A stretch of 64,000 nucleotides of DNA from Gaiellaceae bacterium (GCA_049644305.1 JBARRQ010000111.1:4712-68711); one strand, 5' to 3'. Counted from the first letter of the stretch, positions 13,654 to 53,238 are shown. A program made the numbers and translations. Notes: generated from the letters alone by a model not told the origin.

Positions 13654-13679
13654 GTGTCCCGCTTCTGCCGAGAGCTTGG

Positions 13680-16278: not shown

Positions 16279-16700
16279 AGGTCCGTTTCGACTCCCATCG
16301 AGCGCGCCGTGCCGGCGATGACCTTCATCGCTTGGTCCACGTCGCGCGCGTTCAGGTCGGGCATCTTCGTCTCCGCGATCTGACGCAGTTGGTCCCGGGT
16401 CAGGCGGCCAACCTTCTCCCGGTTCGGCTCGCCGGAGCCCTTCTCGAGACGCAACGCCTCCTTGATCAGGACGGCCGCCGGCGGCGTCTTCGTGATGAAG
16501 TCGAAGGAACGGTCTTCGTAGACCGTGATCTCGACGGGGATGATGCGGCCGTTCTCCTGCGCGGTCTGCGCATTGAACGCCTTGCAGAACTCCATGATGT
16601 TCACCCCGTGCTGGCCGAGCGCGGGGCCGACCGGTGGAGCCGGGTTGGCCTGCCCGCCGGGGATCTGGAGCTTGATCAGTGTCAGAACCTTCTTGGCCAT
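16275..16700 (-). CDS. rplK: 50S ribosomal protein L11
   Basis: …[22 protein letters not shown]…, 141 aa. Confidence 0.97.
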
Positions 16701-16702
16701 GA

Positions 16703-35477: not shown

Positions 35478-36097
35478 GTGCCGGCTCCGGGGTTGCGCAC
35501 ATCTGCCGCGATCACGAAATGCACCACCTGCGCGCCCGCGACCTTCGTCAGCACGCTCTGCTGGAGCTGCACGTTGACGAGGTCCGGAACTACCGCGAGG
35601 CGGCTCAGCAGCCGGGCGACGGCAGCGTGCGAGTACGTGTAGCCGTCGAGCGTGAACTGCGTCGCGGCCACGAGCGCTCCTGACGTGGGCGCCGAAGGCG
35701 TCTGGGCTAGGGACGAGAGGATGGGGGCCTTCGCTGACAGTGTGGCGAGCCAGACGTCGTTGGGCAGGACGAGCGAGAGCTCGCGGAAGACGCGGTCCCA
35801 GGCGACACGGCGCGAGAGGGCGGCATTGAGCGCGCTCACGCGGCTCTGCCTGTCCGCGGCAAGCGCATTCTGGGTCTGGACCTTCGAGGCGTCCGGCGTC
35901 GGGATTGCCGCGAGCTCGGCTTTGAGCCCGTCGAGCTGCGTCTGCCGGCTCTTCACCTTTCCGCTCGCGGACAGGAACATCACGGCGAGCAGGCCGGTCA
36001 TGAGCACGGTCGCGACCACCGGAACGAGCACGATCCACTGTGTCTTCTGGGGGCCTCGCCGAGCGTCGTCTCGCGGAAGAAGGTTGATCGCGCGCAT
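35474..36097 (-). CDS. pilN: Pilus assembly protein PilN
   Basis: MRAINLLPRD (the conserved PilM-binding INLLP N-terminus), followed by a TM helix and coiled coil. Start trimmed from 36160. Confidence 0.88.
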   Translation of the reverse strand: MRAINLLPRDDARRGPQKTQWIVLVPVVATVLMTGLLAVMFLSASGKVKSRQTQLDGLKAELAAIPTPDASKVQTQNALAADRQSRVSALNAALSRRVAWDRVFRELSLVLPNDVWLATLSAKAPILSSLAQTPSAPTSGALVAATQFTLDGYTYSHAAVARLLSRLAVVPDLVNVQLQQSVLTKVAGAQVVHFVIAADVRNPGAGT

Positions 36098-36260
36098 CAG
36101 TGCCCCGTCCGGTAATGCCGCCGAGTTTCTGGGTTGCGAGCACCAAGCCGGAGTTCGCACTTGTCCGCAGCAAGGCTGGATTGCCTTGCCAAGGGCAAGG
36201 GTGGGCTCTGGCGCCGCGTGATCGCGGACCAGAAGCCGGCATGTATTACTGGATGGGGCA

Positions 36261-37762: not shown

Positions 37763-38899
37763 CTATGCCTCCGCGACTCGCAGGTTGGGCGTCGTTTTCT
37801 CCTGGTCCACGGCAACTTCGAAGCCCACCCGCTCGAGCAGGCCGAGCAGCTGCTCGGGGCGGCTCGAACGCGCGAGAGCGACGTCAACGGTGATTACGCC
37901 GCGCAGCGTCAGGTCGGCGAGGGACTGCTCCATCGTCTGCATGCCCCGGGCGGTCCCGGTCTGCATCACCGAGTAGATCTGTTCCACCTTCGCCTGCCGG
38001 ATCAGGTTCCGGACGGCATCGTCGGGAAAGAGAATCTCAAGGGCCGGCACGCGGCCTGTGCCGTCGGCGGTCGGGAGGAGCGCCTGGGTGACGACGCCCT
38101 CGAGCGTGGCGGCAAGCTGGATGCGAACCTGGTCTTGCTGGCTTGCCGGGAACGCGTCGATGACGCGGTCGATCGTTCCGGGCGCGCTCTGGGTGTGAAG
38201 AGTGGCGAACACGAGGTGGCCCGTCTCGGCGGCGGTCAGGGCTGTTGCGATCGTCTCGAGGTCGCGCATCTCGCCCAGGAGGATCACGTCGGGGTCCTGG
38301 CGGAGAGCGGCGCGGAGAGCGCTGGCGAAGTCGGTCGCGTCGACGCCGATCTCGCGCTGGTTGACGACACAGCGCTTGTGCCGGTGCACGAACTCGATCG
38401 GATCCTCGATCGTGAGGATGTGCTCGGCGCGCTTGCGGTTGATCTCGTCGATCAGCGCCGCGAGCGTCGTCGACTTACCCGACCCGGTCGGGCCGGTCAG
38501 GAGGACGAGGCCGCGGGGCCGGTCGGTCAGCGTGTGCAGGCTCGAGGGAATGCCGAGCTCCTCGAGCGTCTTGATCTCGGCGGGAATCAGCCGGAAGGCT
38601 GCGCCCAGGCTCTCTCGCTGCCAGTAGACGTTCACGCGGAAGCGGGCGAGGCCGGGAATCGAGTGAGCGAGGTCGATCTGGCGGTTCAGCTCGAGCTGCT
38701 TCTGCTGCTCGGTGGAGAGGATGCGGTAGAGAAGCTGGTGCGTCGTCTCGCTTGTGAGCGGGTCGATCTCCTGCAGCGGCTCGAGCCGACCGCGGACGCG
38801 GACAACCGGATGCGCGCCTACGGTGATGTGCAGGTCGGACGCATTCAGCGCCACCATCTGCTCGAGCAAATCGTCGATCGAATAAGGGGTCTCCGGCAT
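37763..38899 (-). CDS. pilT: Twitching-motility (retraction) ATPase PilT
   Basis: GPTGSGKST, ILLGEMRD, GHLVFATLHT and the PilT-type AVRNLIRQ motif. 378 aa. Confidence 0.93.
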   Translation of the reverse strand: MPETPYSIDDLLEQMVALNASDLHITVGAHPVVRVRGRLEPLQEIDPLTSETTHQLLYRILSTEQQKQLELNRQIDLAHSIPGLARFRVNVYWQRESLGAAFRLIPAEIKTLEELGIPSSLHTLTDRPRGLVLLTGPTGSGKSTTLAALIDEINRKRAEHILTIEDPIEFVHRHKRCVVNQREIGVDATDFASALRAALRQDPDVILLGEMRDLETIATALTAAETGHLVFATLHTQSAPGTIDRVIDAFPASQQDQVRIQLAATLEGVVTQALLPTADGTGRVPALEILFPDDAVRNLIRQAKVEQIYSVMQTGTARGMQTMEQSLADLTLRGVITVDVALARSSRPEQLLGLLERVGFEVAVDQEKTTPNLRVAEA

Positions 38900-39050: not shown

Positions 39051-39443
39051 ATGCTTGCAAGGCTTTCGCACCGACTCGGCCAGGTGCGGCGCGACGAGGG
39101 CTTCACCCTCATCGAGCTTCTGGTCGTAATCATCATTCTCGGGATCCTGCTTGCGATTGCGATCCCGTCGTACCTCAGCTTCCGCACGCGGGCTAACAAG
39201 TCCGCCGCGCAGGCGAACGTCCGCGCCGCCGTGCCGGGCATGGAGGCGTTCAACGCCGACCACGCCACGGGCTACGTGGGCGTGACTCTCACCAAGCTCC
39301 AGCAGTCGTATGACGCCGGGATCAAGAACATCAAGATCTCGGTCGCGACGCTCGGCGGCTACTGCATCCGGAACACCGTCCCCGGCACCGCGACGTACCA
39401 CAAGTCGGGCCCGTCGGGCGACATCAAGACCGGTAGCTGCTAG
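39051..39443 (+). CDS. pilA: Type IV major pilin, paralog 1
   Basis: Leader MLARLSHRLGQVRRDEG/FTLIELLVVIIILGILLAIAIPSY, a short globular domain, and a C-terminal Cys pair (GGYC…TGSC). AAGGAGGA RBS. Confidence 0.93.
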   Translation: MLARLSHRLGQVRRDEGFTLIELLVVIIILGILLAIAIPSYLSFRTRANKSAAQANVRAAVPGMEAFNADHATGYVGVTLTKLQQSYDAGIKNIKISVATLGGYCIRNTVPGTATYHKSGPSGDIKTGSC

Positions 39444-40057: not shown

Positions 40058-41038
40058 GTGAGTCTGCGCCTCCGGATCGTTGCTGCGGCCGCGCTCGTGG
40101 CCCTGCTCGCGCTCGGCGGAGGCTTTCTGCTGCTCGGTCACGGCCAGAGCTCGACGAGCGCGGCGGTCAAGCAGATCAAGCCGCTCCACCCCGTCAAGCA
40201 CAAGGTGCGTGCCGCGGCGAAGCGGGCGAAGCCGAAGCGGACGGCGGCGGCGCACAAAGCTCACCCGGCTTTTGCGAAGAAGGTCGCGACTCCGGCGGTG
40301 ATCGACGGGATGCCCGGCGCGCTTGCCCTGGCACTTCAGGCAAACAACGTCGTCGTCGTCTCGCTGTACGCAACGGGTTCCACAATTGACAGGCTCGCGA
40401 AGGAAGAGGCACAGCAGGGAGCTGCCATGTCGGGCGCGGGCTTCGTCGCGCTGAACGTCGCCGACGAGAAAGTCGTGCGTCCGCTGACGTCGCTCCTGAC
40501 GAGCGGCGCGACGGCGGCTGACCGCGTCCTCGACGATCCCGCTGTTCTCGTCTTCCAGAGCCCGAAGATCTTGTTCGTGCGTCTCAACGGCTTCACCGAC
40601 CGCGAGACGGTCGCGCAGGCCGCTACGAATGCCGGCGCGGTAAACGTCGCTCTTCCCGCGGGAACCGGCGCGTGGGCAGGCAAGGCGAACGTCGTCTGCA
40701 CGAAGATGGCAACGGATCTGGTCGGGCTGAAGCTTCCGACCTCCGCCTCCGAAGTGCTCACCTGGGCCGATCACGTAACCGCGGTCCTGGCGGGAACGAT
40801 TCGGAGTCTGCACGGGCTCACTCCCCCGGCCGGCCGCGAACGTCAGGTCAGGCAGATGCTTTCGTTCTACGACACGGCCTTGGCGAGCTTGCGCGGGATC
40901 ATCGCGGACGTGCGCGCCGGGAAGCAGCCCGACCTGACCGGCTTCCAGCAGAAGATCGCACCGCTCGGCGCGCGCGCCGACGCGATCGCCCGCGACCTCG
41001 GCGCCACCGCCTGCGGCGGCTCCGGTCTGCTCCAGTGA
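40058..41038 (+). CDS. Membrane-anchored hypothetical protein (326 aa) downstream of the pilins
   Basis: GTG start, N-terminal TM helix, a Lys/Ala-rich basic stretch, an alpha/beta region and a helical C-terminus. Coding-like composition. Confidence 0.7.
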   Translation: MSLRLRIVAAAALVALLALGGGFLLLGHGQSSTSAAVKQIKPLHPVKHKVRAAAKRAKPKRTAAAHKAHPAFAKKVATPAVIDGMPGALALALQANNVVVVSLYATGSTIDRLAKEEAQQGAAMSGAGFVALNVADEKVVRPLTSLLTSGATAADRVLDDPAVLVFQSPKILFVRLNGFTDRETVAQAATNAGAVNVALPAGTGAWAGKANVVCTKMATDLVGLKLPTSASEVLTWADHVTAVLAGTIRSLHGLTPPAGRERQVRQMLSFYDTALASLRGIIADVRAGKQPDLTGFQQKIAPLGARADAIARDLGATACGGSGLLQ

Positions 41039-41301: not shown

Positions 41302-41447
41302 CTACGCCCGGCCGACCGGGACAAGCCTCCGACGCGGACAAACCGGTGTCGGACACCGGATTGAGTCAAGGGGAAAGCGTGCCAAGAGTGTGCCGAATTC
41401 GTCGCGTCGCGTCGGGGCCTCCAGCGACGTCGCCTACTCTCGAGCGA

Positions 41448-42011
41448 ATGGCCCGCCGTCCGCGCGTTCTCGTTGCAGGCATCTACCACCTCGCCGCCCA
41501 TGGGAGCGACACTCGCCGTCTCTTCCTGAGCGACGACGACCGTGAAGACTTCCTTGACCGACTCGCCCTGACGTGCGAGCGCTTCGAGCTTTCGCTCATC
41601 GCCTACGTCCTGCTGGGGAACCACTACCACGCCCTGTTGCGAATCCCCGACGGGCGACTCTCAGAAGCCCTCCAGCGGCTCCATACCGAGTACTCGCGCT
41701 GGCACAACCGCCGCCACCGGCGTAGCGCCCACCTCTTCCGTGCGCATCCGTCGACGCGCGAGATCGCAAGCGACGAACAGCTGGTCGCCGCCTCCCGCTA
41801 CCTCGCCCTCAACCCGGTCGAGGCAGGACTCGCCGGCGATCCGCTCGAGTGGCCCTGGAGCAGTGCGGGCGCGCACGCTGGTCTCGAGCAACCGCGCATT
41901 CCGCTTGCCGAGAATGACCTGCAAGGCGCCTACGGCGGCGCAGCTGACTGGCGCGACAACTACCGCGCGCAGCTCCAGAGGGAGGACGCAGCGTCGGGGC
42001 CTACGTGGTGA
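41448..42011 (+). CDS. IS200/IS605-family Y1 (HUH) transposase-like protein (RayT / Y1_Tnp-like)
   Basis: MARRPRVLVAGIYHL…, the HUH motif in LLGNHYHALL, and a catalytic-Tyr helix AASRYLALNPVEAGL. Start trimmed from 41346. Confidence 0.8.
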   Translation: MARRPRVLVAGIYHLAAHGSDTRRLFLSDDDREDFLDRLALTCERFELSLIAYVLLGNHYHALLRIPDGRLSEALQRLHTEYSRWHNRRHRRSAHLFRAHPSTREIASDEQLVAASRYLALNPVEAGLAGDPLEWPWSSAGAHAGLEQPRIPLAENDLQGAYGGAADWRDNYRAQLQREDAASGPTW

Positions 42012-43794
42012 CGCGGGCGAGCTCTTCGATCGAGGTGAGCCCGGAGGCGACCTTCGCGAGCCCGTCGTCCCAGAGCGTCCTCATGCCCTCCTCGATCGCC
42101 GCGCGGTCGAGCTCCTCGCGGCTCGCCTTGGTCGCGGCCAGGCTCTCGAGGTTCTCGCTCATGGCGAGGAGCTGGAAGATGCCGACTCGACCCTTGTAGC
42201 CGGTCTGGCCGCAGCGAGGACAGCCCTTCTTCCGGTAGAAGACGACGCCGTCCGCCGCTGCCGCCACCTCCGGCGAGACGCGGGCCTTGATCAGATCCTC
42301 GACCGTCGGCGAGAACATCTCGCAGCAGTGCGTACAGAGCTTCCGAGCGAGCCGCTGGGCGAGCACAGCCGAGACCGCCGAACCGGTCAGGAACGGCTCT
42401 ACCCCCATCTCGTTCAGGCGCGAGATCGCGCCCGGAGCGTCGTTGGTGTGCATCGTCGAAAGGACGAGGTGGCCTGTGAGCGCAGCCTCGATCGAGATCT
42501 TGGCCGTCTCGCTGTCGCGGATCTCGCCGACCATCACGACGTCGGGATCCGAGCGCAGAATCGACCGCAGCGCCGCGGCGAACGTGAGCCCTGCGCGCGG
42601 GTTGATCTGCACCTGATTGACGCCGGCAAGCCGGAACTCGACTGGGTCCTCGACGGTGATGATGTTGATCTCCGGATTGTTGATCTCCGTCAGCGCGGCG
42701 TAGAGCGTCGTCGACTTACCCGAGCCCGTCGGCCCGGTGGCGAGGATCGCCCCAGTCGGGCGGCGGATGATCTCCTCCAGCTTCGTCCGCATGTCCTGGG
42801 CGAGGCCGAGATCGGTCAGGGTCGGCGCCTTCTTCGACTTGTCGAGTAGCCGCATGACGATCGACTCGCCCTCGACCGTCGGCAGCGTGGCCACGCGGAC
42901 GTCGAGCATCCGGCCCGCCGCGGCCGCGTTCAGAGAGATGCGGCCGTCCTGCGGCTTTCGCCGTTCGGCGATGTCGAGCTTCGCGAGCACCTTCAGGCGT
43001 GTGGTGACGCCGTTCATCATCCGCTTCGGGATCCGCTGCACCTCGTGCAAGACGCCGTCGATCCGGAGGCGCACCGCGAGCGCGTCTTCTTGCGGCTCGA
43101 AATGGATATCGCTCGCCCCGTCCTCGGCCGCCTGGAAGATGATCGAGTTGACCAGCCGCACGAGCGGCGCGTCCGAGATGCCGTCGTCGACTTCGAGGTC
43201 GTCGATCTCCTCCTCGGTCTCGGCTTCCCCCACTCCTTCCTCGTCGATGACAGCGCGGGCCCCGAACGCCTCGGACGCCCGGACGAGTCGGCGAATCTCG
43301 GTGTTGATGTCCTCGCGGGCCGCAACAGCGAGCTCGAGCTGGTACTTGGTTGCGAGCCGCAGCTCGTCGATCGCCTGGACGTTGCCGGGATCCGCCACGG
43401 CGATGCGGAGGACATTGCCCTCTAGCGCGTACGGGACGGCGACGACGCGCTCGAGCACGTGGAGCGGCAGCTCTTTGGCCGCCGCGGCCTGAACGCTGAC
43501 GACGGGCAGGTCGACGAACGGCAGATGGAAGCGGCTCGCCAGGGTGCGCGCAATGCCCTCGGACGAGGCGACTCCTTCGTCGAGCACGGCCTGCGCGAAC
43601 GCGGTTCCCTGCTTCGTGCGGCCGCGGACGAGTGCAAGCTTGTCGGCGGGGACGAGGCCCGTCGTCTCGATCAGGTCGGCGACGAGCTCGGCCAGCTCGT
43701 TGACGGGGAACGAGCCGAGGTCCGCGCCGCCCGCGGCGGCGTCGGTGCCGGCAGGGCCGGATGTCCTGAGTTTTCCGGGCCGCTTGAGATCCAT
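42001..43794 (-). CDS. pilB: Type IV pilus assembly (extension) ATPase PilB
   Basis: T2SSE N-terminal domain, GPTGSGKST, VMVGEIRD, GHLVLSTMHTNDA, and a tetra-Cys motif CTHCC…CPRCG. 597 aa. Confidence 0.95.
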   Translation of the reverse strand: MDLKRPGKLRTSGPAGTDAAAGGADLGSFPVNELAELVADLIETTGLVPADKLALVRGRTKQGTAFAQAVLDEGVASSEGIARTLASRFHLPFVDLPVVSVQAAAAKELPLHVLERVVAVPYALEGNVLRIAVADPGNVQAIDELRLATKYQLELAVAAREDINTEIRRLVRASEAFGARAVIDEEGVGEAETEEEIDDLEVDDGISDAPLVRLVNSIIFQAAEDGASDIHFEPQEDALAVRLRIDGVLHEVQRIPKRMMNGVTTRLKVLAKLDIAERRKPQDGRISLNAAAAGRMLDVRVATLPTVEGESIVMRLLDKSKKAPTLTDLGLAQDMRTKLEEIIRRPTGAILATGPTGSGKSTTLYAALTEINNPEINIITVEDPVEFRLAGVNQVQINPRAGLTFAAALRSILRSDPDVVMVGEIRDSETAKISIEAALTGHLVLSTMHTNDAPGAISRLNEMGVEPFLTGSAVSAVLAQRLARKLCTHCCEMFSPTVEDLIKARVSPEVAAAADGVVFYRKKGCPRCGQTGYKGRVGIFQLLAMSENLESLAATKASREELDRAAIEEGMRTLWDDGLAKVASGLTSIEELARVTT

Positions 43795-43854: not shown

Positions 43855-44607
43855 CTAGTGGTTAAACAGGCCCAGGTAGGCGTGGAACAGCGAATGACCC
43901 GCGAAGAGCGCCGCGACGGCTCCGAGAGCCAGGAACGGGGCGAAAGGGATGCCCATCTTCCGCGCCGCCGAGCCGTGGCGGGCAACGAGGACGAGACTCG
44001 GGACGAGCGCCGCGAGCATGCCGAGCATCAGGCCGACCGCGACCAGTCGCCCGAGCATCGCACCGAGAAGCAGCGCGAGCTTCACGTCGCCCATTCCCAT
44101 GCCGGCCGGGTAGGCCAGCGCGGCGGCGAGGAGAAAGCCGGAGGCGCCGAGCGCGCCGAGAGCCCACTCCGGGCTCGGGTGCAGGGCCGTCTGAGCTGCG
44201 AGGACAAGTGCAGCGGCCGGGAGGACGATCCGGTTCGGGACGATCCTGTGTGTCAGGTCCGTCGCGGTGACCGCGACCAGGACGGCACAGAAGAACGCGC
44301 TCACGACGGCCTTCCCCGAGAGGCCGAATGCCACGAAGCAGCCCGCGACGAGCACAGCGGTCGCGAGCTCGACGGCCGGGTACAGCGGGCTGATTCCCGC
44401 TCCGCACGAGCGACAGCGCCCGCGGAGAACGAGGTACGAGAACACGGGGAGGTTGTCGTACCACGCCAGTTCCGCGCTGCAGCTCATGCAGGCCGAGCGT
44501 GGCCTGACCACCGACCGACGCAGCGGCACGCGCGCCGCGACGACGTTCACGAAGCTGCCGAGGGCGAGGGCCGGCCAGAACGCGAGCACACCGAGAGCGA
44601 CGTCCAC
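43855..44607 (-). CDS. pilD: Prepilin peptidase / N-methyltransferase PilD (A24 family)
   Basis: N-terminal CMSC…CRSCG, and catalytic Asp motifs …TATDLTHRIVPN… and …GMGMGDVKL…. Confidence 0.93.
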   Translation of the reverse strand: MDVALGVLAFWPALALGSFVNVVAARVPLRRSVVRPRSACMSCSAELAWYDNLPVFSYLVLRGRCRSCGAGISPLYPAVELATAVLVAGCFVAFGLSGKAVVSAFFCAVLVAVTATDLTHRIVPNRIVLPAAALVLAAQTALHPSPEWALGALGASGFLLAAALAYPAGMGMGDVKLALLLGAMLGRLVAVGLMLGMLAALVPSLVLVARHGSAARKMGIPFAPFLALGAVAALFAGHSLFHAYLGLFNH

Positions 44608-44681: not shown

Positions 44682-46415
44682 CTAGCCGCTGAACATCTGC
44701 GGCGGGTTCGGCTGCGCGTAGACCTCGGGGTTGCCCGGCTGGCCTACAGGCACGGTCGTGATGTTCGGGAACGCGTTCGTGACCACGTTGTTCGAGAGCA
44801 GGATCTGGCTGCCCATGATCGGGCCGTCGGAGCTCGCGTTGTTGCCGTAGTCGACGTTCCCGGTCCCGAAGAGGCCGCCCTGGAAATACTGGTTGTTGAT
44901 CAGCTGAATGCTGTCGCCGGCGGCGACCTGGCCGCCGGTGCCGTTGGCCACGATCGTCAGCAACTCCGTGTTCGGGTTCCAGTTCGAGAACACGCAGCTG
45001 CTGCCGGTCGGCACGCCGCAGAGGCTGCCGTTGAAGAGCATCGTCCCGGAGAGGTACAGCGTCGCCTGGCCGTTGTAGTTCGCGTTCTGTGAGACCTTCG
45101 CGCTGCCGTCGATGAAAATCGTTCCCTTCACGGTCAGAGTCTTGGACGTCGCATTCCAGGAGATCTCGCCGCTCGTGTTCGAGTCGTCCCAATAGACGGA
45201 CGCGCCCGCGGCATGGGTGGCTGCCGTCGTCCCGTTCACGCCCCGAGTGACGGTCCAGGTGGTCGTCCCCTGGCCGGCGGTGACGGTCATGTCCTCGTCA
45301 TCGACCCTGATGCGGTAGTTCCCGCTGGTCGGAAAGCCTGAGGCCGACGGGACGGTAATCGTCGTCTGGCTCGCCGTCATCGCGCTCGAGACGGTCGTGC
45401 TCGCCCCAGGCCCGACGCGGCAGATGTACGAGCTCGAAGGTGTCAGGTCGAAAGAGGTCGAGACGCTGTTGTCGCGGTTCGGGTAGTTGTTGTCGAACGT
45501 CGGCGTCGTGCCGCTTGACGTCGTGCACGACTGGGCCGGCCCGGGGATCGCGTTCTGATACCAGGTGGCGAAGTCGGCCGCGGGCGCGGCGATCACCGGC
45601 GCCGTGTGGTTGACGCCGATTGTCGAGCCGTCAGAGAGCTTGCTGAAGATGTTGTACGCGTCCTGGTTTCCCGTGCACGTATGCCAGGCGCTGCTGACCT
45701 TCTGGTAGCGACAGTTGTTACCGACATACGTCTCGACGCGGGTGCTCATGTTCGTGTTCGCCCCGACGTAGGCGTTGTTCGCGAGGTCGAGGTTGCCGTT
45801 GACGATCAGCTTCGTCGATGTGATCCCTACGTTGTTCGACAGGCAGAGGTTGCCGGCGATGTACATCCAGGAGCCGCCGCTGACGTTGTTCGAGAGGGTC
45901 TCGTCGCAGGGGTTTCCCGTACGAGTCGCGTAGATGTAGTTCCAGGCTGGGTTGTTCAGCGGCTGCGTGTAGGTCGGAACGACCGTCACCTTCGCGGTCA
46001 GCGTCTTGGAGAGGTAGCCCGAGTTCCCCTTGCTCGCATTTCGGTAGTAGCCCGTCGAGGTCACGGTCCAGATCGCGGCCGAGCGGTCAAGCGTGCCGCC
46101 CCAGACCACGTAGCCGTCGCCGTACGGCGCCGAGCACGTGGAGCCCAGGTTCGTGGAGCAGCTCGTCCTGTTGGGGAGGATGGTGGGATCGAGCGAGTTG
46201 TTCGTCGGCAGGTTCAGGACCGCCATCGAGTTGTTGATGCCGGCCTCCGCCAGAGAGAACGCGTCCTGCTTCGAGCTTGTCTGCGTGGACTCGGTGGAGT
46301 TCGAGGTCGAGTAGACGACCGCGGTCGTGCCCGCGATTGCCAGGACCGTCGTGATCCCAATCGCCATCACGAGCGCCATACCGCGCTCACCCCGCAGGCG
46401 GAGCCACCACCGCAT
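44682..46415 (-). CDS. Large PilX_N-type pilus-associated protein (577 aa), Asn/Ser/Thr/Gly-rich; candidate tip adhesin
   Basis: N-terminus MRWWLRLRGERGMALVMAIGITTVLAIAGTTAVVYS, a PilX/TadG-like hydrophobic N-terminal segment without Glu5. The rest is beta-rich and repetitive (NNxxG/NG motifs). Start trimmed from 46508. Confidence 0.7.
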   Translation of the reverse strand: MRWWLRLRGERGMALVMAIGITTVLAIAGTTAVVYSTSNSTESTQTSSKQDAFSLAEAGINNSMAVLNLPTNNSLDPTILPNRTSCSTNLGSTCSAPYGDGYVVWGGTLDRSAAIWTVTSTGYYRNASKGNSGYLSKTLTAKVTVVPTYTQPLNNPAWNYIYATRTGNPCDETLSNNVSGGSWMYIAGNLCLSNNVGITSTKLIVNGNLDLANNAYVGANTNMSTRVETYVGNNCRYQKVSSAWHTCTGNQDAYNIFSKLSDGSTIGVNHTAPVIAAPAADFATWYQNAIPGPAQSCTTSSGTTPTFDNNYPNRDNSVSTSFDLTPSSSYICRVGPGASTTVSSAMTASQTTITVPSASGFPTSGNYRIRVDDEDMTVTAGQGTTTWTVTRGVNGTTAATHAAGASVYWDDSNTSGEISWNATSKTLTVKGTIFIDGSAKVSQNANYNGQATLYLSGTMLFNGSLCGVPTGSSCVFSNWNPNTELLTIVANGTGGQVAAGDSIQLINNQYFQGGLFGTGNVDYGNNASSDGPIMGSQILLSNNVVTNAFPNITTVPVGQPGNPEVYAQPNPPQMFSG

Positions 46416-46467
46416 GGTTAGAGGATCGGCAAGCCTGGTACCCGCGGCGTCCCTCGAATGGTTATTT

Positions 46468-47043
46468 CTAGGAACGCGAGCTGTTGCGGAGGACGATGTC
46501 GTCCACAAGCTCGTACAGCTCGACCGTCTTCGAGGGCTTGATGTTGATCGGAAAGTCGACGTGCAGCTTCGCCAGCGAAGACGGGGACTGTGCGGTGTAG
46601 GTGAAGATGCAGAGAGCGACGCTGCAAGCCGGCGCGGTCGAGGTCGGGGCGAGGTAGTCCGCCCACTTGACGCCTCCGGTGCACGAGGAGCCCAAGATCC
46701 GATAGAGCGCGTACCGGTTAGTCGCGACGTTGCGCGTGCACCAAGTCACGGAGCCGCTTCCCGTCTTGCAATAGGAGGGAAGCGTCAGGGTCACGGACGA
46801 CGAGGAACCCGCGGGCGTGGCGATGCTTCCACAGTGGACCTCGCGCCGCATCTTGTCGAGCGCGAGCCTTGCCGTCTGCTGCGCCTGGAAGCGGTTGTTC
46901 ATGTCCATCTCGGCGTTCGAGGCCTGGACGAAGACGGTCGTGAGACCGCTCATGACGATGCCCATGATCACGAGCACGATCAGCATCTCCACGAGCGAGT
47001 AGCCTCGCTCGCCGCGCACTCGCCGGAGCATGCGACGGGTCAT
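46468..47043 (-). CDS. Prepilin-type minor pilin (PilW-like)
   Basis: MTRRMLRRVRGERG/YSLVEMLIVLVIMGIVMSGL class III signal. ATG in an ATGA overlap with the upstream stop. Confidence 0.8.
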   Translation of the reverse strand: MTRRMLRRVRGERGYSLVEMLIVLVIMGIVMSGLTTVFVQASNAEMDMNNRFQAQQTARLALDKMRREVHCGSIATPAGSSSSVTLTLPSYCKTGSGSVTWCTRNVATNRYALYRILGSSCTGGVKWADYLAPTSTAPACSVALCIFTYTAQSPSSLAKLHVDFPINIKPSKTVELYELVDDIVLRNSSRS

Positions 47044-47930
47044 CGGCTCAGGCGGCGTACACGTGCGAGAGCAGCCCTGGCGACAACCTCGCTGCGTTGG
47101 CCGACGCCCCAGATCCGCTCGACGCTGCGATCGACGGCGATCAGCCTCTCGAGTGCCTGAGCACCGTGCCACCAGCCGAAGTTCGCGCCGGTCACGATCC
47201 AGGCGTGCTGGTAGAACCAGCGCTGGACGTTGGCGTTGGTCGGCCTAGGCCTCGTTGCGATCCAGGCGGCGAGGCGGTCGGCTCGTGCGGGCAGTGTGAT
47301 CTCGTCCAGCGGCTCCTTGGGGACACCCGGGGCGCGGAAGGCAGGCGGGCGCTTGGCCGGCACGCCTTGCTTCTTTACGGGCTTGCGGACCGCCGGCTTC
47401 TTTGCAGGCTTGTGGGCGGCAGGCTTCGTCGCCGGCTTATGGGCGGCAGGCTTCTTGGCGTGCCGCTTGATCGCCGGCTTGACGCGCGGAGCATGCGGAA
47501 CGCTCGGGGTCGTCAGGCCCGCGAGCTCGACACGCGTCCCGCGGTAGCTCGACGTGTCCTGAGGCGCCCCCTGCTGGGCGTACCGGCCGCGAACGAGCCG
47601 GAGCGCGATCGTCGGCGCTCCTGTGTCGACCACGTGCGTTCCGGCGGCGGGAGACTGGGCTAGGACGCGGTTCCCGGCGAAGCCGTGCACGGGGCCCTCA
47701 ACGCGCCAGGCGAAGCCAGCGTCCTCGAGCATGCCCTTGGCGAAGACGAAAGCCTGGCCCGTCACTGAGGGAACCGCCAGCTCGGGCGGCTGAGCAGGCG
47801 CCCTGGTCGAAGCGCGCGAGGGCCCGAGGATCTGAGTGTCGGCAGCGAACGTGAAAGCCGCCGTCGCCAGCACCCAAACCAGACCGACGAGAACCGCACG
47901 TGGCAGGAGCGTGCCAAGCCGCATGGTCAC
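47040..47930 (-). CDS. Secreted/anchored PASTA-domain protein with a basic KP-rich repeat region
   Basis: Signal/anchor MTMRLGTLLPRAVLVGLVWVLATAAF. A PASTA-like unit, VPSVTGQAFVFAKGMLEDAGFAWRVEG…IALRLVRG, lies at ~47592-47774. The KKPAAHKPATKPAAHKPAKKPAVRKP repeats lie at ~47343-47483. Confidence 0.7.
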   Translation of the reverse strand: MTMRLGTLLPRAVLVGLVWVLATAAFTFAADTQILGPSRASTRAPAQPPELAVPSVTGQAFVFAKGMLEDAGFAWRVEGPVHGFAGNRVLAQSPAAGTHVVDTGAPTIALRLVRGRYAQQGAPQDTSSYRGTRVELAGLTTPSVPHAPRVKPAIKRHAKKPAAHKPATKPAAHKPAKKPAVRKPVKKQGVPAKRPPAFRAPGVPKEPLDEITLPARADRLAAWIATRPRPTNANVQRWFYQHAWIVTGANFGWWHGAQALERLIAVDRSVERIWGVGQRSEVVARAALARVRRLSR

Positions 47931-47963
47931 CCTTCGGCACCGTTCCGAGGGCTTGTCATCCCC

Positions 47964-49385
47964 CTACCGGGTGAATAGGACGACCGAGTCACCGGTGGAA
48001 ACTCGTTGTGTGGGCACGACTTCGAAAACCGGGCTGCTCTGGGCGGGATAGACGGCGTAGCCGCGCGGCGCAGCGTCTTGCCAGCGGAAGGCAACGTCCG
48101 CGAAGCGCTGGAACCACGGCAGGCTCTGCGGGTACACCGTTTGCGGGTTGAGCTGGAGGTGCAGGTGCGGGCCGGTGGCGTCGCCGGTCATGCCGACTAG
48201 TCCGATCTGCTGCCCGGCCGCGAGCGAGACGCCGGCCTGAACGCCTGGGTCGAGGACGGACAGGTGGCAGTAGGTCCAGGACTTGCCGTCGCTCGTTTGG
48301 AGCGTGAGGCCGATGCCGCAGCGGGGATCCGGGGTGTTCCACGCACGCTGGACGACAGCGTCCGAAAGCGCGTAGACGGGCGAGCCCATCGGCGCCGCGA
48401 TGTCTGCCGCGGGGTAGTCGTGGTGATGGTGCGAGACCGAGACGACAGAAGGGCCGCCGCCGACCGGGAAGACGTAGTTTCCGTCGTAGGCTGGCGCGCC
48501 CATCATCGTCGCTGCGGCCGGCGCAAAGGACGAGGAGAGCGACTGGTTGGCCGCCGACGTAAGTGTGGTTTGCGCGTGCTCGAGCGCGGTGCGAAGAGCT
48601 GCCACCCGCGCCTGTGCTGCGGCGCGCGCGACGCCCGCATATGCGGCCTTGCGCTCGAGCTCGAAGCGGTCCGAGAGAACTGTCGTCATGGCAAGGCGCG
48701 TCTTGACGGCGCGCTCGCGCAGCCAGAGCACTCGCACCTTGCGCTCCGCCTTGACGACCCTTGTGTTCGCATCGGCGACGTTCGCGCGTGCCGTATCGAG
48801 TGAGATCTGGAGCCGGTCGAGGCCGAAGGTGGCCTGGGCGCCGCCGGAGCCGAAGAGCTGCGCAAGCTGCAGCACCTCGTTCACGTACCACTGGGCGTGG
48901 TTGTAGGAGTAGATCGCCGCGGAGATGTCCGTCTGGCCGCCCGAGGCGGCCAGGTAGCGCGCGGCCGACGTGATCGCGTCCGCGGCGTTCCAGGGGTCGG
49001 CGACCCCGTCCCCGTTCGCGTCGACGCCCCAGCGCGCCCACGTGGAGGGCATGAACTGCATCCAGCCGATCGCGCCGGCGGAGCTCGGTCCCATGTTTCG
49101 CCCGAAGTTCGACTCGACCTTGTTGATCGCGGCCAGCACCTGCCAGGGGATCCCGTAAGTCGTCCCGGCGCTCTGCCAGAGGGCTTGCAGTTGCCCGTAG
49201 CTCAGCCTCTCAGGGACGAGAGGCGGCGAGCTTGGATAAGCCGCCGTGCCGGGAGCGTTGGGGGCGAGCGCGCTCGGAAGACCCGTCGCAAAGGTCGGCG
49301 CGCTCGGGACGATCCGGAACGTATCGGCGGCCGCAGAACCGGCCAGCACGAGCGCCAGCGAGATTGCCGCAGCGAGCCGCTTCAT
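47964..49385 (-). CDS. Secreted bifunctional peptidoglycan hydrolase: lytic transglycosylase (SLT) domain, coiled coil, M23 (LytM) endopeptidase domain
   Basis: Signal peptide MKRLAAAISLALVLAGSAAA. SLT motifs …INKVESNFG…GAIGWMQFMPSTW… M23 motifs HHHHDYPAADIAAP (HxxxD) and GPHLHLQL (HxH). Confidence 0.88.
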   Translation of the reverse strand: MKRLAAAISLALVLAGSAAADTFRIVPSAPTFATGLPSALAPNAPGTAAYPSSPPLVPERLSYGQLQALWQSAGTTYGIPWQVLAAINKVESNFGRNMGPSSAGAIGWMQFMPSTWARWGVDANGDGVADPWNAADAITSAARYLAASGGQTDISAAIYSYNHAQWYVNEVLQLAQLFGSGGAQATFGLDRLQISLDTARANVADANTRVVKAERKVRVLWLRERAVKTRLAMTTVLSDRFELERKAAYAGVARAAAQARVAALRTALEHAQTTLTSAANQSLSSSFAPAAATMMGAPAYDGNYVFPVGGGPSVVSVSHHHHDYPAADIAAPMGSPVYALSDAVVQRAWNTPDPRCGIGLTLQTSDGKSWTYCHLSVLDPGVQAGVSLAAGQQIGLVGMTGDATGPHLHLQLNPQTVYPQSLPWFQRFADVAFRWQDAAPRGYAVYPAQSSPVFEVVPTQRVSTGDSVVLFTR

Positions 49386-50557
49386 CCGTCCGGCGATCCG
49401 GCGATCCGCAGTTCGGGCACGGTCGGCTCCTCAGGCTCAGGCGCCATCTCGGACAACGGCCGGTCGTGCTCGATTCCGACCGCCTTCCGCTTCAGCGCAA
49501 GCTCGAGGGCGACAAGGAAGTCGTGGCGGTTCGTGGCTGCGTTGGCCGCCACATCCCGGTCGATCTCGCCCGAGAGGACGAGCTCGATTAGCGCGTTGGT
49601 GAACGTCTGCATGTCGAAGAAGTCGCCGTCCGCGATCGCGTCCGGGATCTCCTCGATCTTCTGCTCGCGGATCAGGTCGGCAATGCGCGCGTTCGAGACC
49701 ATCACCTCGACCGCTGCGACGCGTCCGCCCTGGACGCGGGGCAATAGACGCTGGCTCACCACCCCCTGCAGGACGCCCGCGAGAATCGAGCGGATCTGCT
49801 CCTGCTTGACCGCGGGGAAGAACTCGATCAGCCGGTTGATCGTCTCGGCTGCGTCGATCGTGTGCATCGTCGAGAAGACCAGGTGGCCCGACTCGGCAGC
49901 CTTGAGCGCGGTCTCGGCCGTCTCCGCGTCCCGGAGCTCACCGACGAGGATCACGTCCGGGTCCTGGCGCAGCACGCGGCGGGCGGCGGCGAGAAACGAT
50001 TCCGTGTCGAGGCCGACTTCCCGCTGGTTGACGATGCAGCCCTGGTCGGCATGCAGGATCTCGATCGGGTCCTCGATCGTTACGATGTGCAGCCTGCGAG
50101 AGCGGTTGATGTGGTCGATGATCGTTGCGAGCGTCGTCGTCTTCCCCGAGCCTGTCGCGCCTGTGCAGAGGACGAGCCCGCGGTGCTCCTCGGCGAGGCG
50201 GCGAACGCCCTTCGGCAGCCGCAGTTCCTCGAAGCTCGGCACGTTCTTGGGGATGACGCGAAAGGCGAACGAGATCGATCCGCGCTGGCGGAAGCCGTTG
50301 ACGCGAAAGCGCGGAAGGTCGTTCGCCGTGTACGCGATGTCGAGCTCACCGGACTCGTGGAAGGCGGCGAGCTTTGCCGGGGCGAGCTCCGCGACGGTCG
50401 CAAGAGTCGCCTCGAGATCGCCCTCGCGCAGCGGAGGGTGGTCGGGGAGCAGGCCGAGCTCGCCGTCCCGCCGCAGGACAGGCGGCTGGCCGGACTTCAG
50501 GTGGATATCGCTCGCGCCGAGTTCCACGGCGCGCCCGAGGACGGCGTTCAGGTCCAC
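49382..50557 (-). CDS. Second PilT/PilU-family retraction ATPase
   Basis: GATGSGKTT, ILVGELRD, GHLVFSTMHT, ARIADLIRE. ATGA overlap with the downstream hydrolase gene. Confidence 0.9.
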   Translation of the reverse strand: MDLNAVLGRAVELGASDIHLKSGQPPVLRRDGELGLLPDHPPLREGDLEATLATVAELAPAKLAAFHESGELDIAYTANDLPRFRVNGFRQRGSISFAFRVIPKNVPSFEELRLPKGVRRLAEEHRGLVLCTGATGSGKTTTLATIIDHINRSRRLHIVTIEDPIEILHADQGCIVNQREVGLDTESFLAAARRVLRQDPDVILVGELRDAETAETALKAAESGHLVFSTMHTIDAAETINRLIEFFPAVKQEQIRSILAGVLQGVVSQRLLPRVQGGRVAAVEVMVSNARIADLIREQKIEEIPDAIADGDFFDMQTFTNALIELVLSGEIDRDVAANAATNRHDFLVALELALKRKAVGIEHDRPLSEMAPEPEEPTVPELRIAGSPDG

Positions 50558-50630: not shown

Positions 50631-51767
50631 CTAGCGCCCTAGAGCGTCGACCAGTTTCAGCGGAGCTCGAACGAGGCCCTGAGCTTCGCCGGGGTGCGCG
50701 ACGTCGCCGCGCAGGAACGCAGCCGTGAAGCCCCAGACGAGCGGCAGGCGTACAACTTCGTAAACCAGGCGCGGGAAGCGCTCGAGCGCCAGCTTCGCCT
50801 TCCACGATGCCGCCAGCGCCCGACCGAGCGCGGCGTCGAGGCTGGCCCCGTAGTGCTCGAGGCTGGGGCGTCGGCCGGCGAGCAGATCCAGCGCGGTCTC
50901 CGCGGCGAGGCGGGCGCTGACGAGCGCCTCGTAGATCCCGTCTCCCGAGAGCGGATCGACGAGACCCGCTGCGTCGCCGACGAGCATTACGCGACCGCGG
51001 TGAGCAGACTCGCCGGGACGGCGCATCGGAAGCCGGTAGCCCCTCAGGCCCGCGAGCTGCTCGCTGGGCAAGTGGTATGCGGCGCAGGCGCGCTCGAGGT
51101 GCTCGCGGAGGCGTGGGCCCTCCGACTCCCAGCCGCCGACGCCAACGTTGACGTGGTCCCCTTTCGGGAAGACCCACGCGTAGCCGCCTGGGACGGCCCC
51201 GAGCTCGACCACCGCCCGGCCACGCCAGCGTTCCTCGCGCGCGTGAACATAAGAGACGTTCCCCTCCAGCGCGACCCCGTGGCGCCGTGGGCCGACACCG
51301 AGCGTCCGCGCCGCGAGCCCGTTGACTCCGTCGGCCCCGATCACGACCGGTGCGACGGCAGCGCCGCCGTCGAAGCGAACCACCGCTTCGCTCGGCTCGG
51401 GCTCGAGCGCGGTCGCGCGCAGGCCGTCACGGAAGTCGGCCCCCGCCGCCGCGGCCTGCTCTGCGAGGTGGGCGTCGAGTCGCCGCCGCTGCGTCATCAG
51501 GATCAGAGGCCCCTTTGAGCCGCGCTCGAACCGCGGGCCGTACCGGAAGCCGAGCTCGAACCGATGAACCACGTCCTCGACGACCGCGTCCACAGGAAAC
51601 GGCAGCTGGCGAACGGCCCTGTACGTCAAGCCGCCGCCGCAGGGCTTGTCGCGCGGGAAGCGCTCGCGGTCGAGTAGCAGCACACGGGCGCCGGTGCGGG
51701 CCAGGCGGAAGGCAGCGGTCGAGCCCGCCGGCCCGGCCCCGACGACGATCGCGTCGAAGCGCTCCAC
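50631..51767 (-). CDS. Geranylgeranyl reductase-family FAD-dependent oxidoreductase
   Basis: FDAIVVGAGPAGSTAA dinucleotide fold and …DKPCGGGL… The start is set provisionally at GTG 51767; the track ORF extends to 51914. Confidence 0.8.
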   Translation of the reverse strand: MERFDAIVVGAGPAGSTAAFRLARTGARVLLLDRERFPRDKPCGGGLTYRAVRQLPFPVDAVVEDVVHRFELGFRYGPRFERGSKGPLILMTQRRRLDAHLAEQAAAAGADFRDGLRATALEPEPSEAVVRFDGGAAVAPVVIGADGVNGLAARTLGVGPRRHGVALEGNVSYVHAREERWRGRAVVELGAVPGGYAWVFPKGDHVNVGVGGWESEGPRLREHLERACAAYHLPSEQLAGLRGYRLPMRRPGESAHRGRVMLVGDAAGLVDPLSGDGIYEALVSARLAAETALDLLAGRRPSLEHYGASLDAALGRALAASWKAKLALERFPRLVYEVVRLPLVWGFTAAFLRGDVAHPGEAQGLVRAPLKLVDALGR

Positions 51768-51843
51768 CCGCCCATCGTACGGGTCTTGAAGCCCTGCGGG
51801 CACCTGAGTAGAGTCGGTCGCCAGCGAACCGGAGGAGAGGGCA

Positions 51844-53238
51844 ATGGCTTCAGGGATCGAGCTGGCGACCGGCGAGGTCGAGGCGTTCGCAGCAGGATTG
51901 CAAGGAGGCGTCACCCGTCCGGTCGATTCGGGCTACGACGAAGCTCGCGCGCTGCACAACGGCATGATCGACAAGCGTCCGGCCCTGATCGCGCTGTGCG
52001 CAAGCGTCGACGACGTCGTCGAGGCCGTGAACTTCGGCCGCAAGCAGGGCGTCGACATTGCAATCCGCTGCGGCGGCCACAACGGCGCCGGGCTCGGAAG
52101 CGTCGACGACGGCCTCCTGATCGACCTCGGAGGTCTCAAGAGCATCGCGGTCGACCCGGAGGCGCGCACGGCGAAGATCGGCGGCGGCTGCCTGCTGGGC
52201 GACGTCGATGCGGCGACGCACGAGCACGGGCTTGCGACTCCCGGCGGAATCATCTCGACGACCGGTGCCGGCGGCCTGATACTCGGAGGCGGAATCGGCC
52301 ACCTGACGAGGAAGTGCGGCCTCTCGATCGACAACATCCTCGGCGCGGAGGTCGTCCTCGCGGACGGCAGCGTGGTCAACGCCGACGAGAAGACCAACGC
52401 CGACCTCTTCTGGGCGATCCGTGGCGGCGGCGGCAACTTCGGCGTCGTCACGTCCCTCACGCTCAGGCTCCACCCGGTCGGGACCGTCGTCGCGGGCCCG
52501 ATGTTCTGGCCGATCGAGCGAACGGGCGACATTCTCCGCTGGTATCGCGAGTTCATCCTGAACGCGCCCGAGGATCTGAACGGCTTTTTCGCGTTCGCGA
52601 GCGTTCCGCCCGCCCCGCCCTTCCCGGAGGAACTTCACCTGCGGAAGGTCGCAGCCGTCATCTGGTGCTGGGCCGGCCCGGAAGAGGGGGCCGAGGAGGC
52701 GCTCGCCGAGCCTCGGGCGCAGCCGGAGTTGCTGCTCGACGGCGTTCAGCCGATGCCGCTGCCGGCGCTGCAGAGCGCTTTTGACGAGCTCTACCCGCCC
52801 GGCGACCAGTGGTACTGGCGTGCCGACTTCGTCGAGGAGATCCCTGACGAGGCGATCGAGCGGCACACCGAGTTCGGCGAGAAGATGCCGACGTGGAAGT
52901 CCACGATGCACCTCTATCCCATCGACGGTGCAGCCCACAGGGTGGGCCCGACCGAGACTCCGTGGGGCTATCGCAATGCCAACTGGGGGATGGTGATGGC
53001 CGGAGTCGACCCGGATCCCGCCAACGCCCCGCCGATCACGTCCTGGTCGATCGACTACTGGGAGGCGATGCACCCGTACTCGGCAGGCGGTGCCTACGTG
53101 AACATGATGATGGAGGAGGGTCAGGAGCGCGTGCAGGCGAGCTACGGAGAGAACTACGAGCGGCTCGCGAAGATCAAGGCGGCGTACGATCCGGACAACC
53201 TCTTCCATGTGAACCAGAACATCCGACCGGCGAGCTGA
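51844..53238 (+). CDS. FAD-linked oxidase (FAD_binding_4 plus berberine-bridge-enzyme-like C-terminus)
   Basis: …RCGGHNGAG…, …WAIRGGGGNFGVVT…, and a C-terminal YDPDNLFHVNQNIRP. Confidence 0.88.
   Translation: MASGIELATGEVEAFAAGLQGGVTRPVDSGYDEARALHNGMIDKRPALIALCASVDDVVEAVNFGRKQGVDIAIRCGGHNGAGLGSVDDGLLIDLGGLKSIAVDPEARTAKIGGGCLLGDVDAATHEHGLATPGGIISTTGAGGLILGGGIGHLTRKCGLSIDNILGAEVVLADGSVVNADEKTNADLFWAIRGGGGNFGVVTSLTLRLHPVGTVVAGPMFWPIERTGDILRWYREFILNAPEDLNGFFAFASVPPAPPFPEELHLRKVAAVIWCWAGPEEGAEEALAEPRAQPELLLDGVQPMPLPALQSAFDELYPPGDQWYWRADFVEEIPDEAIERHTEFGEKMPTWKSTMHLYPIDGAAHRVGPTETPWGYRNANWGMVMAGVDPDPANAPPITSWSIDYWEAMHPYSAGGAYVNMMMEEGQERVQASYGENYERLAKIKAAYDPDNLFHVNQNIRPAS

Follow-up and report, generated by a model that had tools for sequence, protein, structure and literature searches.

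The 64,000-nucleotide stretch of DNA analysed here (the window) comes from a Gaiellaceae bacterium of the Thermoleophilia (GCA_049644305.1 JBARRQ010000111.1:4712-68711), and carries a predicted type IVa pilus cluster with a monoderm-type gene set. Open reading frames of the cluster were picked by their G+C content at the third codon position (GC3) and scanned against Pfam and NCBIfam. PilB, PilT, PilC, PilD, PilM, PilN, PilO and prepilins are all present, and these scans revealed no gene for a secretin (PilQ) or for PilP in the cluster. Embedded among the pilus genes are the two that concern us, both on the minus strand: a putative peptidoglycan hydrolase of 473 amino acids (47964-49385) and a PASTA protein of 294 amino acids (47040-47924), the stop codon being included in both cases. 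An earlier reading made from the sequence alone (the sequence-only reading) had placed both frames at these positions, and proposed that the pair may open and sense a thick monoderm wall for passage of the pilus. As an interpretation this is partly supported by what follows.

The pair is bounded by pilus genes on both sides. Upstream lies pilT2 (49382-50557, minus strand, 391 amino acids; Pfam T2SSE), a second PilT-family retraction-type ATPase that scores 422 bits against the NCBIfam model TIGR01420 (pilT_fam; cut-off 319) and is 44% identical to PilT1 (37763-38899, minus strand; Pfam scan) by BLASTP. The stop codon of pilT2 overlaps the start of the hydrolase gene within the ATGA at 49382-49385. 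At the other end the stop codon of the PASTA protein overlaps the start of a PilW/GspH-like minor pilin (46468-47043, minus strand; Pfam N_methyl and NCBIfam prepilin domain) within the ATGA at 47040-47043, the pilin beginning at ATG 47043 with MTRRMLRRVRGERG followed by YSLVEM. Both overlaps are as the sequence-only reading described them. There is no terminator-like site between pilT2 and pilB, and the hydrolase gene is predicted to be co-transcribed and translationally coupled with pilT2.

The hydrolase is 100% identical to an NCBI protein from a Gaiellaceae metagenome-assembled genome, annotated as a lytic murein transglycosylase. It begins with a signal peptide read from the sequence (amino acids 1-20, 49326-49385, minus strand; MKRLAAAISLALVLAGSAAA followed by D) in which inspection revealed no lipobox Cys. 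A comparable N-terminus is present in all orthologues, and the protein is predicted to be exported by the Sec route on an ordinary signal peptide. This is followed by a domain (amino acids 63-178, 48852-49199, minus strand) matched by Pfam SLT_2 (77.9 bits, cut-off 24.3, E = 1e-21) and SLT (48.2 bits, cut-off 21.3, E = 9e-13). Within the SLT_2 model (292 positions) the best stretch takes in only 151-202, and the MltB-like domain is accordingly a compact one. The motifs VESNFG and GWMQFMPSTW, which the sequence-only reading had singled out, are both present. VESNFG and AGAIGWMQFMPSTW align with the region of the catalytic Glu and the next conserved stretch of Escherichia coli Slt35/MltB (1ltm/1d0k). 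Glu91, within VESNFG, aligns with the VETRWG region of Slt35 and is invariant in all alignments; AGAIGWMQFMPSTW is invariant in the SLT alignments, and the SLT motifs are unchanged across relatives that are 37-77% identical. We therefore regard the SLT head as putatively glycan-cleaving, with the predicted catalytic Glu91 intact. We note that the SLT domain of PrgK, an enzyme discussed below, proved to be a muramidase and not a lytic transglycosylase (PMC11323569).

The segment described earlier as a coiled coil (approximately amino acids 179-285, 48531-48851, minus strand) forms an antiparallel helical hairpin of about 120 amino acids in the AlphaFold2 model, with helices at 165-233 and 237-285. 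The predicted local distance difference test score (pLDDT) is 91-95 over residues 210-270, approximately. The hairpin is kept in all domain variants of the hydrolase. The top Foldseek match of the model is the cyanophage A4 pre-ejectosome (9k2v_A), and EnvC in the FtsEX-EnvC complex (8tzl_E) is also matched.

Beyond the hairpin lies an M23 domain of the LytM type (amino acids 300-415, 48141-48488, minus strand; Pfam Peptidase_M23, 61.4 bits, cut-off 28.7, E = 9e-17). It has sequence matches in the PDB to zoocin A, ShyA and LytM, and its fold is matched by Foldseek to LytM, lysostaphin, ShyA and others with E about 1e-6. The sequence-only reading had given it both an HxxxD and an HLH motif; the latter is present at 407-409, but the former is not canonical. 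The metal motif is a variant, S-H319-x-H321-H322-D323-Y-P-A-A-D328, together with H374 and H407-L-H409. D328 aligns with the metal-binding Asp of the M23 family, and the position four residues before it (i.e. that of the His in HxxxD) is occupied by Tyr324; H319, H321 and H322 lie 2-5 residues upstream of this position. H319, H321, H322, D323, D328, H374, H407 and H409 are invariant in 33 sequences. The second head of the enzyme is predicted to be aimed at peptide cross-links, by M23 here and by NlpC/P60 in some relatives. Model confidence falls below 50 in the metal-motif loop and the mean pLDDT of the whole hydrolase is 58, the SLT and M23 folds being confident in parts; overall confidence is low, and the metal site was read from the alignments.

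The partner is 100% identical to an NCBI 'PASTA domain-containing protein'. The likely start of its gene is ATG 47924, which has GAAGGG 6 nt upstream, and not GTG 47930. The N-terminal hydrophobic segment (amino acids 1-28, 47841-47924, minus strand) is unusually conserved, with invariant columns in 42 sequences (LLPR...W.L.TAAFT.AAD) and a helix predicted at 9-32 by AlphaFold2, and is probably retained as a membrane anchor. The PASTA unit (amino acids 51-107, 47604-47774, minus strand; PF03793) is matched by Pfam at 26.8 bits against a cut-off of 23.2 (i.e. marginally; E = 5e-6), and in all of the 42 aligned homologues, with a best E of 3e-8. The pLDDT is about 30 over residues 27-189, so that the unit has no confident fold. 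Comparison of the family profile with PDB sequences found no PASTA chain at E<=1, and gave matches at the level of chance (DotI, E = 0.2; ribosomal L25). Because neither AlphaFold2 nor the PDB profile search confirmed it, the PASTA assignment is that of the Pfam hidden Markov model alone.

This is followed by a Lys/Pro-rich disordered spacer (47349-47492, minus strand; pLDDT about 30) of 9-amino-acid repeats (AHKPATKPA...), found by Tandem Repeats Finder as 3.3 copies with a period of 27 bp at 47369-47456, in agreement with the KP-rich basic repeats reported earlier. Its composition is not conserved, being basic here, and acidic and Pro/Thr-rich in two related loci (L050 and L052). The C-terminal domain (amino acids 205-294, 47043-47312, minus strand; YQHAWIVTGAxFGWWHG) has a pLDDT of about 90. 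Its four helices, i.e. the last 90 residues, are the only confident part of a model with a mean pLDDT of 53; for both proteins the low overall confidence arises because the alignments are shallow, with close relatives only. The four-helix domain has no Pfam match. A fold search of the model against the PDB returned nothing at E<=0.001, the best matches (E = 0.5) being generic helical bundles, and the 374 matches to the domain when used alone as query all lie within the PASTA-protein family. It is a new domain, without known relatives in sequence or fold outside this family. Matches of 100-190 amino acids resembled a stand-alone version, but these proved to come from genes broken up by frameshifts in long-read assemblies (L082, L083), and a free-standing protein was therefore rejected. 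The hydrophobic N-terminus and PASTA unit are present in all variants of the partner; the four-helix domain is absent in several lineages, where the gene has only about 135-145 codons. In a relative on a 2.9-Mb contig (L001) the pilus cluster contains a second PASTA-type protein, 510 amino acids long (15505-17037, minus strand), inserted in inverse orientation between pilD and pilB, with faint PD40/Tricorn beta-propeller and weak PASTA matches.

The distribution of the pair was followed in related genomes. A profile-free, exhaustive search gave 785 clusters at E<=1e-30, many of the listed matches being fragments or frameshifted fusions. Apparent fusions of PilT to the hydrolase (P0258, P0319) and of the hydrolase to the PASTA protein (P0291, P0313) were discarded as frameshift artefacts, though they still reflect the gene order PilT-hydrolase-PASTA. 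We note that such fusions and split genes (these four, P0350, L082 and L083), present in public protein collections through frameshift-rich long-read assemblies of high-GC genomes, would mislead a census of domain architectures. An alignment of diverse full-length relatives was then used to scan one genome per GTDB species, giving 80 loci, and the window proteins were compared with each locus by tblastn. A second, independent set of 80 metagenome contigs came from a scan with a distant relative (P0299); this did not recover the lineage of P0299 itself, the best match being 43% identical. The adjacency counts given below cover loci with enough flanking DNA, and there are about 137 related loci in all, 57 from species-level genomes and 80 from metagenomes.

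The hydrolase, 41-69% identical, lies in a pilus cluster in 55 of the 80 genome loci and on the separate 2.9-Mb contig. An almost invariant order is common to these: a geranylgeranyl-reductase-like FAD (flavin adenine dinucleotide) oxidoreductase (not always), pilT2, hydrolase, PASTA protein, pilW and pilX (again not always), pilD and pilB. The gene directly upstream of the hydrolase is pilT2 in 48 of 49 genome loci and 56 of 57 metagenome loci (104/106 together), counting as adjacent one locus (L027) where the automated tally, which gave 47, was misled by a nearby paralogue. The sole genome exception is L036, in which pilT2 is absent and the reductase-like gene abuts the hydrolase directly. 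The only metagenome locus to break the adjacency is L163, where two transposase-like open reading frames (207-2744; one IS630-like by eye) replace pilT2. The PASTA gene follows the hydrolase in 49/50 genome loci and 53/53 metagenome loci (102/103 together), L008 being the sole exception. In 34 of 53 loci the pilT2 stop shares 1 or 4 nt with the start of the hydrolase. The median distance between these two genes is -1 nt, and that between the hydrolase and PASTA genes is 42 nt. Where the cluster has been rearranged (L035, L038) the three genes pilT2-hydrolase-PASTA stay together as one unit. The pair thus lies between pilT2 and the minor pilins or pilD in essentially every related locus, and the synteny with pilus genes on which the sequence-only reading depended holds. 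With overlaps on both sides of the pair in the window, and a conserved position in about 137 loci, the hydrolase is encoded within the operon of the machine itself, as would be expected of a machine-dedicated enzyme. Its median identity across the loci is 53%, compared with 69% for PilD and PilB, 45% for PilW and 35% for PilX, indicating that it evolves like a part of the machine.

In the window the reductase-like gene lies at 50631-51914 on the minus strand, and it is directly upstream of pilT2 on the same strand in 33 genome loci. The paralogue in L027 (2319-3437) is a second SLT and NlpC/P60 protein without the hairpin, located outside the operon about 7 kb upstream of the pilus-linked hydrolase.

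All recovered orthologues with the SLT-hairpin architecture are pilus-linked. The other 25 genome matches are proteins of Solirubrobacterales that share the SLT domain only; they have 650-880 amino acids and a different architecture, and no pilus genes were found within 10 kb of them. These proteins (L057-L074 and L076-L081; e.g. L074 9365-11680) are secreted, with a low-complexity region, an SLT domain 61-65% identical over 114 amino acids, an M23-like segment carrying a long insertion and, at the C-terminus, a stretch that is VanY/M15-like by eye. From their sequences they appear to be a separate family of multi-headed wall enzymes.

The peptidase head is exchangeable. Among 51 complete hydrolase orthologues, 38 have an M23 head, nearly all with HHDYPAAD, and six have an NlpC/P60 head with its Cys-His-His triad intact (Pfam E = 1e-30 and 9e-17). 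One (L047, about 9900-11788) has a tandem pair of M23 domains, with canonical WHHGND (i.e. HxxxD) in the first and HHDYPAAD in the second; L053 is of the same double type, though frameshifted. In two (L040, 10001-11353; L046, about 3150-4506) the peptidase position is taken by a third domain of about 170 amino acids (...RIDQGVDY...EIYYAE...AEIGF...). This looked M23-like by eye, but hhalign with the M23 family profile, phmmer against the PDB, and Pfam at E<=10 were all empty and that assignment was dropped. The few remaining orthologues escaped classification by motif search through frameshifts or divergent sequence. The SLT domain, the helical region and the C-terminal tail persist with every type of head and in more distant relatives. 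The tail lies in a C-terminal extension (47967-48140 in the window, minus strand; low model confidence), and consists of PVFxVVP, 10-15 residues and then VVLFTR, VVYFTH or IVLFSR at the very C-terminus. Its retention beside every kind of peptidase head makes it a possible docking motif. The swap between M23 and NlpC/P60 on a constant SLT scaffold argues that cleavage of peptidoglycan is what selection acts on.

In the lineage with NlpC/P60-headed hydrolases the two genes of the pair are set apart. In L050 a MurT-like gene (Mur_ligase_M and MurT_C) and an HD-domain gene (HD_5/HD) lie between them (11910-13932), and there is likewise a gap of 2-3 kb in L052 and L054. We take the MurT-like protein to be an enzyme of peptidoglycan iso-glutamate amidation, and so another wall-related gene inside the module.

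PrgK of pCF10, TraG of pIP501 and CwlT of ICEBs1 are likewise multi-domain enzymes encoded in the operon of a machine, one head being glycan-cleaving (SLT or muramidase) and the other of a peptidase family (LytM, CHAP or NlpC/P60). However, these serve type IV secretion and not a type IV pilus, have no PASTA partner, and show no sequence relationship to the hydrolase beyond the common Pfam domains; PrgK has an N-terminal membrane anchor and lacks a long helical hairpin. PrgK is targeted to its machine by a partner, PrgL (PMC11323569). Recruitment of its own wall hydrolase by an envelope-spanning machine is described for EssH of type VIIb secretion, FlgJ/SltF, EtgA, MltE and TagX (PMC13059805; Scheurwater & Burrows 2011, as cited in PMC12424861). 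The principle is common to EssH, to FlgJ/SltF of flagella and to EtgA, MltE and TagX of type III and type VI secretion systems, but machines, enzyme families and domain make-up differ. A further secreted hydrolase is LytF of Streptococcus sanguinis, a monoderm, whose catalytic activity raises the level of extracellular type IV (Com) pilin and which is proposed to make or widen pores for the pilus (PMC12424861). LytF is of the CHAP type with Bsp repeats, is encoded outside the pilus operon in the competence regulon, and is unrelated in sequence and architecture.

Lytic-transglycosylase-family genes are also found in type IVb pilus operons, as BfpH of the bundle-forming pilus of enteropathogenic E. 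coli and PilT of the thin pilus of plasmid R64. These come from diderm Proteobacteria and are single-domain SLT proteins, with no peptidase head, hairpin, PASTA partner or coupling to a retraction ATPase. The sequence-only reading had taken the arrangement to be undescribed. We found no paper describing it in the literature searched, but because of these type IVb operons the novelty is narrower than had been implied.

A long antiparallel hairpin joined to a LytM, CHAP or NlpC/P60 domain recalls EnvC, PcsB and RipC, in which the hairpin is the lever by which a cytoplasmic ATPase controls hydrolysis beyond the membrane. Unlike these, the hydrolase has PilT as its neighbouring ATPase and an additional, apparently active SLT head, and its role would be in pilus biogenesis. 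No ftsEX-like genes were found around the cluster in the window or in the annotated relative L001. As the defining partnership with FtsEX is absent, the hydrolase appears to lie outside the FtsEX-controlled group, and any control of it by an ATPase would be pure conjecture by analogy. PASTA domains of PknB/PBP2x-type kinases and penicillin-binding proteins bind peptidoglycan fragments; here the putative PASTA unit is fused to a Pro-rich spacer and a new four-helix domain. A wall-binding module encoded with, or attached to, a pilus machine has counterparts in the LysM of FimV and TsaP and the AMIN of PilQ in diderm type IVa pili. No paper that connects type IV pili with PASTA domains or with Thermoleophilia came up in our literature search.

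The way in which type IVa pili of monoderms cross the wall was treated as unknown in a 2019 review, which speculated on a role for an enlarged PilO; the pili studied in Actinobacteria were all of the Tad type (PMC6916266). The first experimental hint on monoderms was that from LytF and the streptococcal competence pilus in 2025 (PMC12424861). The locus bears on this question. To our knowledge the type IVa pilus clusters of Actinomycetota are essentially unstudied.

From gene order and domain content we consider it rather probable that the hydrolase and the PASTA protein form a peptidoglycan-remodelling module dedicated to the type IVa pilus machine of Gaiellales, and the pair is the best current candidate for passage of this pilus through the wall without an outer-membrane channel. 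On our best reading such a module would be an analogue of VirB1/PrgK, BfpH, EssH and LytF, yet new for type IVa pili and for Actinomycetota. The enzyme would cut glycan strands locally, and peptide bridges too in most lineages, and so let a filament of about 6 nm and its priming complex pass a meshwork with smaller pores. The PASTA protein would bind peptidoglycan and confine, position or restrain the enzyme at the machine, with the Pro-rich spacer giving it reach and the four-helix domain acting as adaptor. Docking or regulation could fall to the hairpin and the conserved tail, keeping a potentially lethal enzyme under the control of the machine.

The hydrolase might go further and be a gated 'drill', a physical part of the pilus machine, which we think unlikely. 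In one version the C-terminal strand (..VVLFTR) would dock on the minor-pilin priming complex, so that the enzyme rides on the tip of the filament. In another the hairpin would act as a lever of the EnvC/PcsB type, the ATPase cycle of PilT2 switching wall cutting through the membrane platform. In both versions hydrolysis of peptidoglycan would be coupled, in a way not known before, to the pilus motor in the cytoplasm or to the tip of the pilus.

A number of observations weigh against a dedicated two-headed module. It is so far inferred from genomes. Synteny within one order could partly reflect shared ancestry and not function, and both structural models are of low overall confidence. Since Tyr324 replaces the canonical zinc-binding His of HxxxD, the M23 head could be regulatory and not catalytic, like the degenerate LytM domain of PrgK; and two of the 51 orthologues have in the peptidase position a domain that could not be identified. 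The need for such a module is also not self-evident. Diderm type IVa pili manage without any dedicated hydrolase known to us. The order has a single cultured member, Gaiella occulta; it is described as non-motile, gives a Gram-negative stain and has a thin peptidoglycan layer by transmission electron microscopy (PMC6741124), so that the thick wall assumed by the sequence-only reading is unsupported. Even in a thin sacculus, however, the pores are narrower than a pilus; for pores and pilus, dimensions of about 6 nm are discussed, rising to about 8 nm with DNA attached (PMC12424861).

The doubt over the M23 head leads to an alternative in which wall opening is dedicated to the pilus but catalysis falls to the SLT head alone. 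The M23 domain would be a non-catalytic regulator or binding module that restrains or targets this head, as in PrgK, or in EnvC and NlpD with their degenerate LytM domains. Tyr324 at the position of the canonical His would be explained, as would the heads of L040 and L046, replaced by a domain without a detectable hydrolase signature, and the resemblance to EnvC found by Foldseek. The SLT domain of PrgK is down-regulated by its LytM and CHAP domains, neither of which is active (PMC11323569). Yet the invariance of the His/Asp set in 33 sequences is in keeping with a metal site that departs from the canonical one but works, the Cys-His-His catalytic triad is retained in the NlpC/P60 replacements, and the extra M23 domain of L047 has a canonical HxxxD, so that we hold this alternative to be possible but rather improbable. 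Silencing could be taken further, such that the pair anchors the pilus machine to peptidoglycan through hydrolase folds that act as binders, analogous to the LysM of FimV/TsaP and the AMIN of PilQ. A pilus that retracts must be anchored against load, the ATPase to which the genes are coupled is of the retraction type, and the PASTA unit, if real, is a wall-binding module. But pure binding modules usually lose their catalytic residues, and here the catalytic Glu and SLT motifs are invariant and the NlpC/P60 triads intact; we regard this as the least probable of the explanations considered.

Other explanations take the enzyme away from biogenesis of the pilus. A secreted protein that combines SLT with M23 or NlpC/P60 is what one typically sees in bacteriolytic enzymes and phage ejection proteins, Foldseek ranks the cyanophage pre-ejectosome first, modular exchange of heads is common among effectors, and a small partner gene so closely linked to the enzyme recalls effector-immunity pairs. 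The hydrolase might thus be an offensive or lytic effector used with the pilus against other cells (in predation, competition or DNA release), with the PASTA protein as immunity or control. This seems very unlikely to us, as the signal peptide of the enzyme is an ordinary one of the Sec type and the Pfam scan recognised no domain for delivery. It is present in single copy at a fixed position with machine-like conservation, showing no sign of the rapid diversification or gene arrays typical of effectors, and its exported, membrane-anchored PASTA partner is unlike a typical small immunity protein. Alternatively it could be a housekeeping autolysin of growth or division resembling EnvC, PcsB or RipC, left in the pilus cluster only by inherited gene order. 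A helical hairpin with a hydrolase domain is the architecture of those division factors (Foldseek 8tzl_E), the best-known PASTA domains belong to kinases and penicillin-binding proteins of division and elongation, and with all the data coming from one order the synteny may be phylogenetic inertia. Against this, most of 53 species (41-69% identity) retain the overlap with pilT2, the pilT2, hydrolase and PASTA genes move together in the rearranged clusters, and there are no ftsEX or division genes near the hydrolase. Other SLT wall hydrolases exist in these genomes (the L027 paralogue and the Solirubrobacterales family), so the hydrolase is not the sole candidate for a housekeeping role, and we strongly doubt this explanation.

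A module dedicated to the pilus would have consequences beyond this locus. It offers a genetically defined candidate, in which a hydrolase with two heads, a putative wall-binding partner and a dedicated PilT paralogue are held together across an order of abundant soil Actinomycetota, and so makes the question of wall crossing open to experiment. The heads (M23, double M23, NlpC/P60 and the third domain) on a constant SLT-hairpin-tail scaffold provide a natural series. The variant M23 metal motif and the new four-helix domain are also of wider use. If the function is confirmed, the rule that each envelope machine brings its own wall hydrolase would extend to type IVa pili.

The cluster is chromosomal, because rpoB and rpoC lie at 5208-13430, approximately 20 kb from it. 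Given this, and a base composition that is uniform along the window at about 68% GC, location on a mobile element was rejected. On the far side of the minor pilin from the pair, a gene for a large PilX-like protein of the minor-pilin or tip type (44682-46508, minus strand) encodes up to 608 amino acids, its start being uncertain. Its PilX_N match is weak (18 bits, below cut-off), and it is syntenic in most loci. In L021, L027, L029, L031, L055, L084, L085, L113 and L159 it is present as two tandem diverged copies. Beyond it are the genes for the prepilin peptidase PilD (43855-44607, minus strand; Pfam A24_N_bact and Peptidase_A24) and the extension ATPase PilB (42001-43794, minus strand; Pfam T2SSE and MshEN), which scores 601 bits against NCBIfam type_IV_pilB, below the equivalog cut-off of 675.

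The remaining pilus genes lie further along. PilM (36261-37760, minus strand; Pfam) is assigned 499 amino acids, yet its PilM_2 match begins at residue 152. The preceding 150 amino acids or so would be an N-terminal extension, unless the mechanically picked GTG start is too far upstream. PilN (35474-36160) and a PilO-like protein (34734 to about 35500), both on the minus strand and from the Pfam scan, are followed by a gene of unknown type (33984-34727, minus strand; a GC3-selected frame) and by pilC (31981-33192, minus strand; Pfam). A pilin is encoded on the plus strand at 39051-39443 (Pfam scan).

Also on the plus strand, a gene for an IS200-like Y1 transposase (41346-42011; Pfam Y1_Tnp, E = 1e-6) sits between pilB and the gene at 40058-41038, its 3′ end overlapping the region of the pilB stop codon by 11 nt. 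In syntenic loci (e.g. L001, L002 and L007) the corresponding interval has no match to a window protein, and so the transposase looks like a recent insertion within the pilus cluster. The gene at 40058-41038 (plus strand) encodes a protein of 326 amino acids with an N-terminal hydrophobic segment and no Pfam match, and is conserved between the pilB and pilin genes in most related clusters (e.g. L001 19230-19827).

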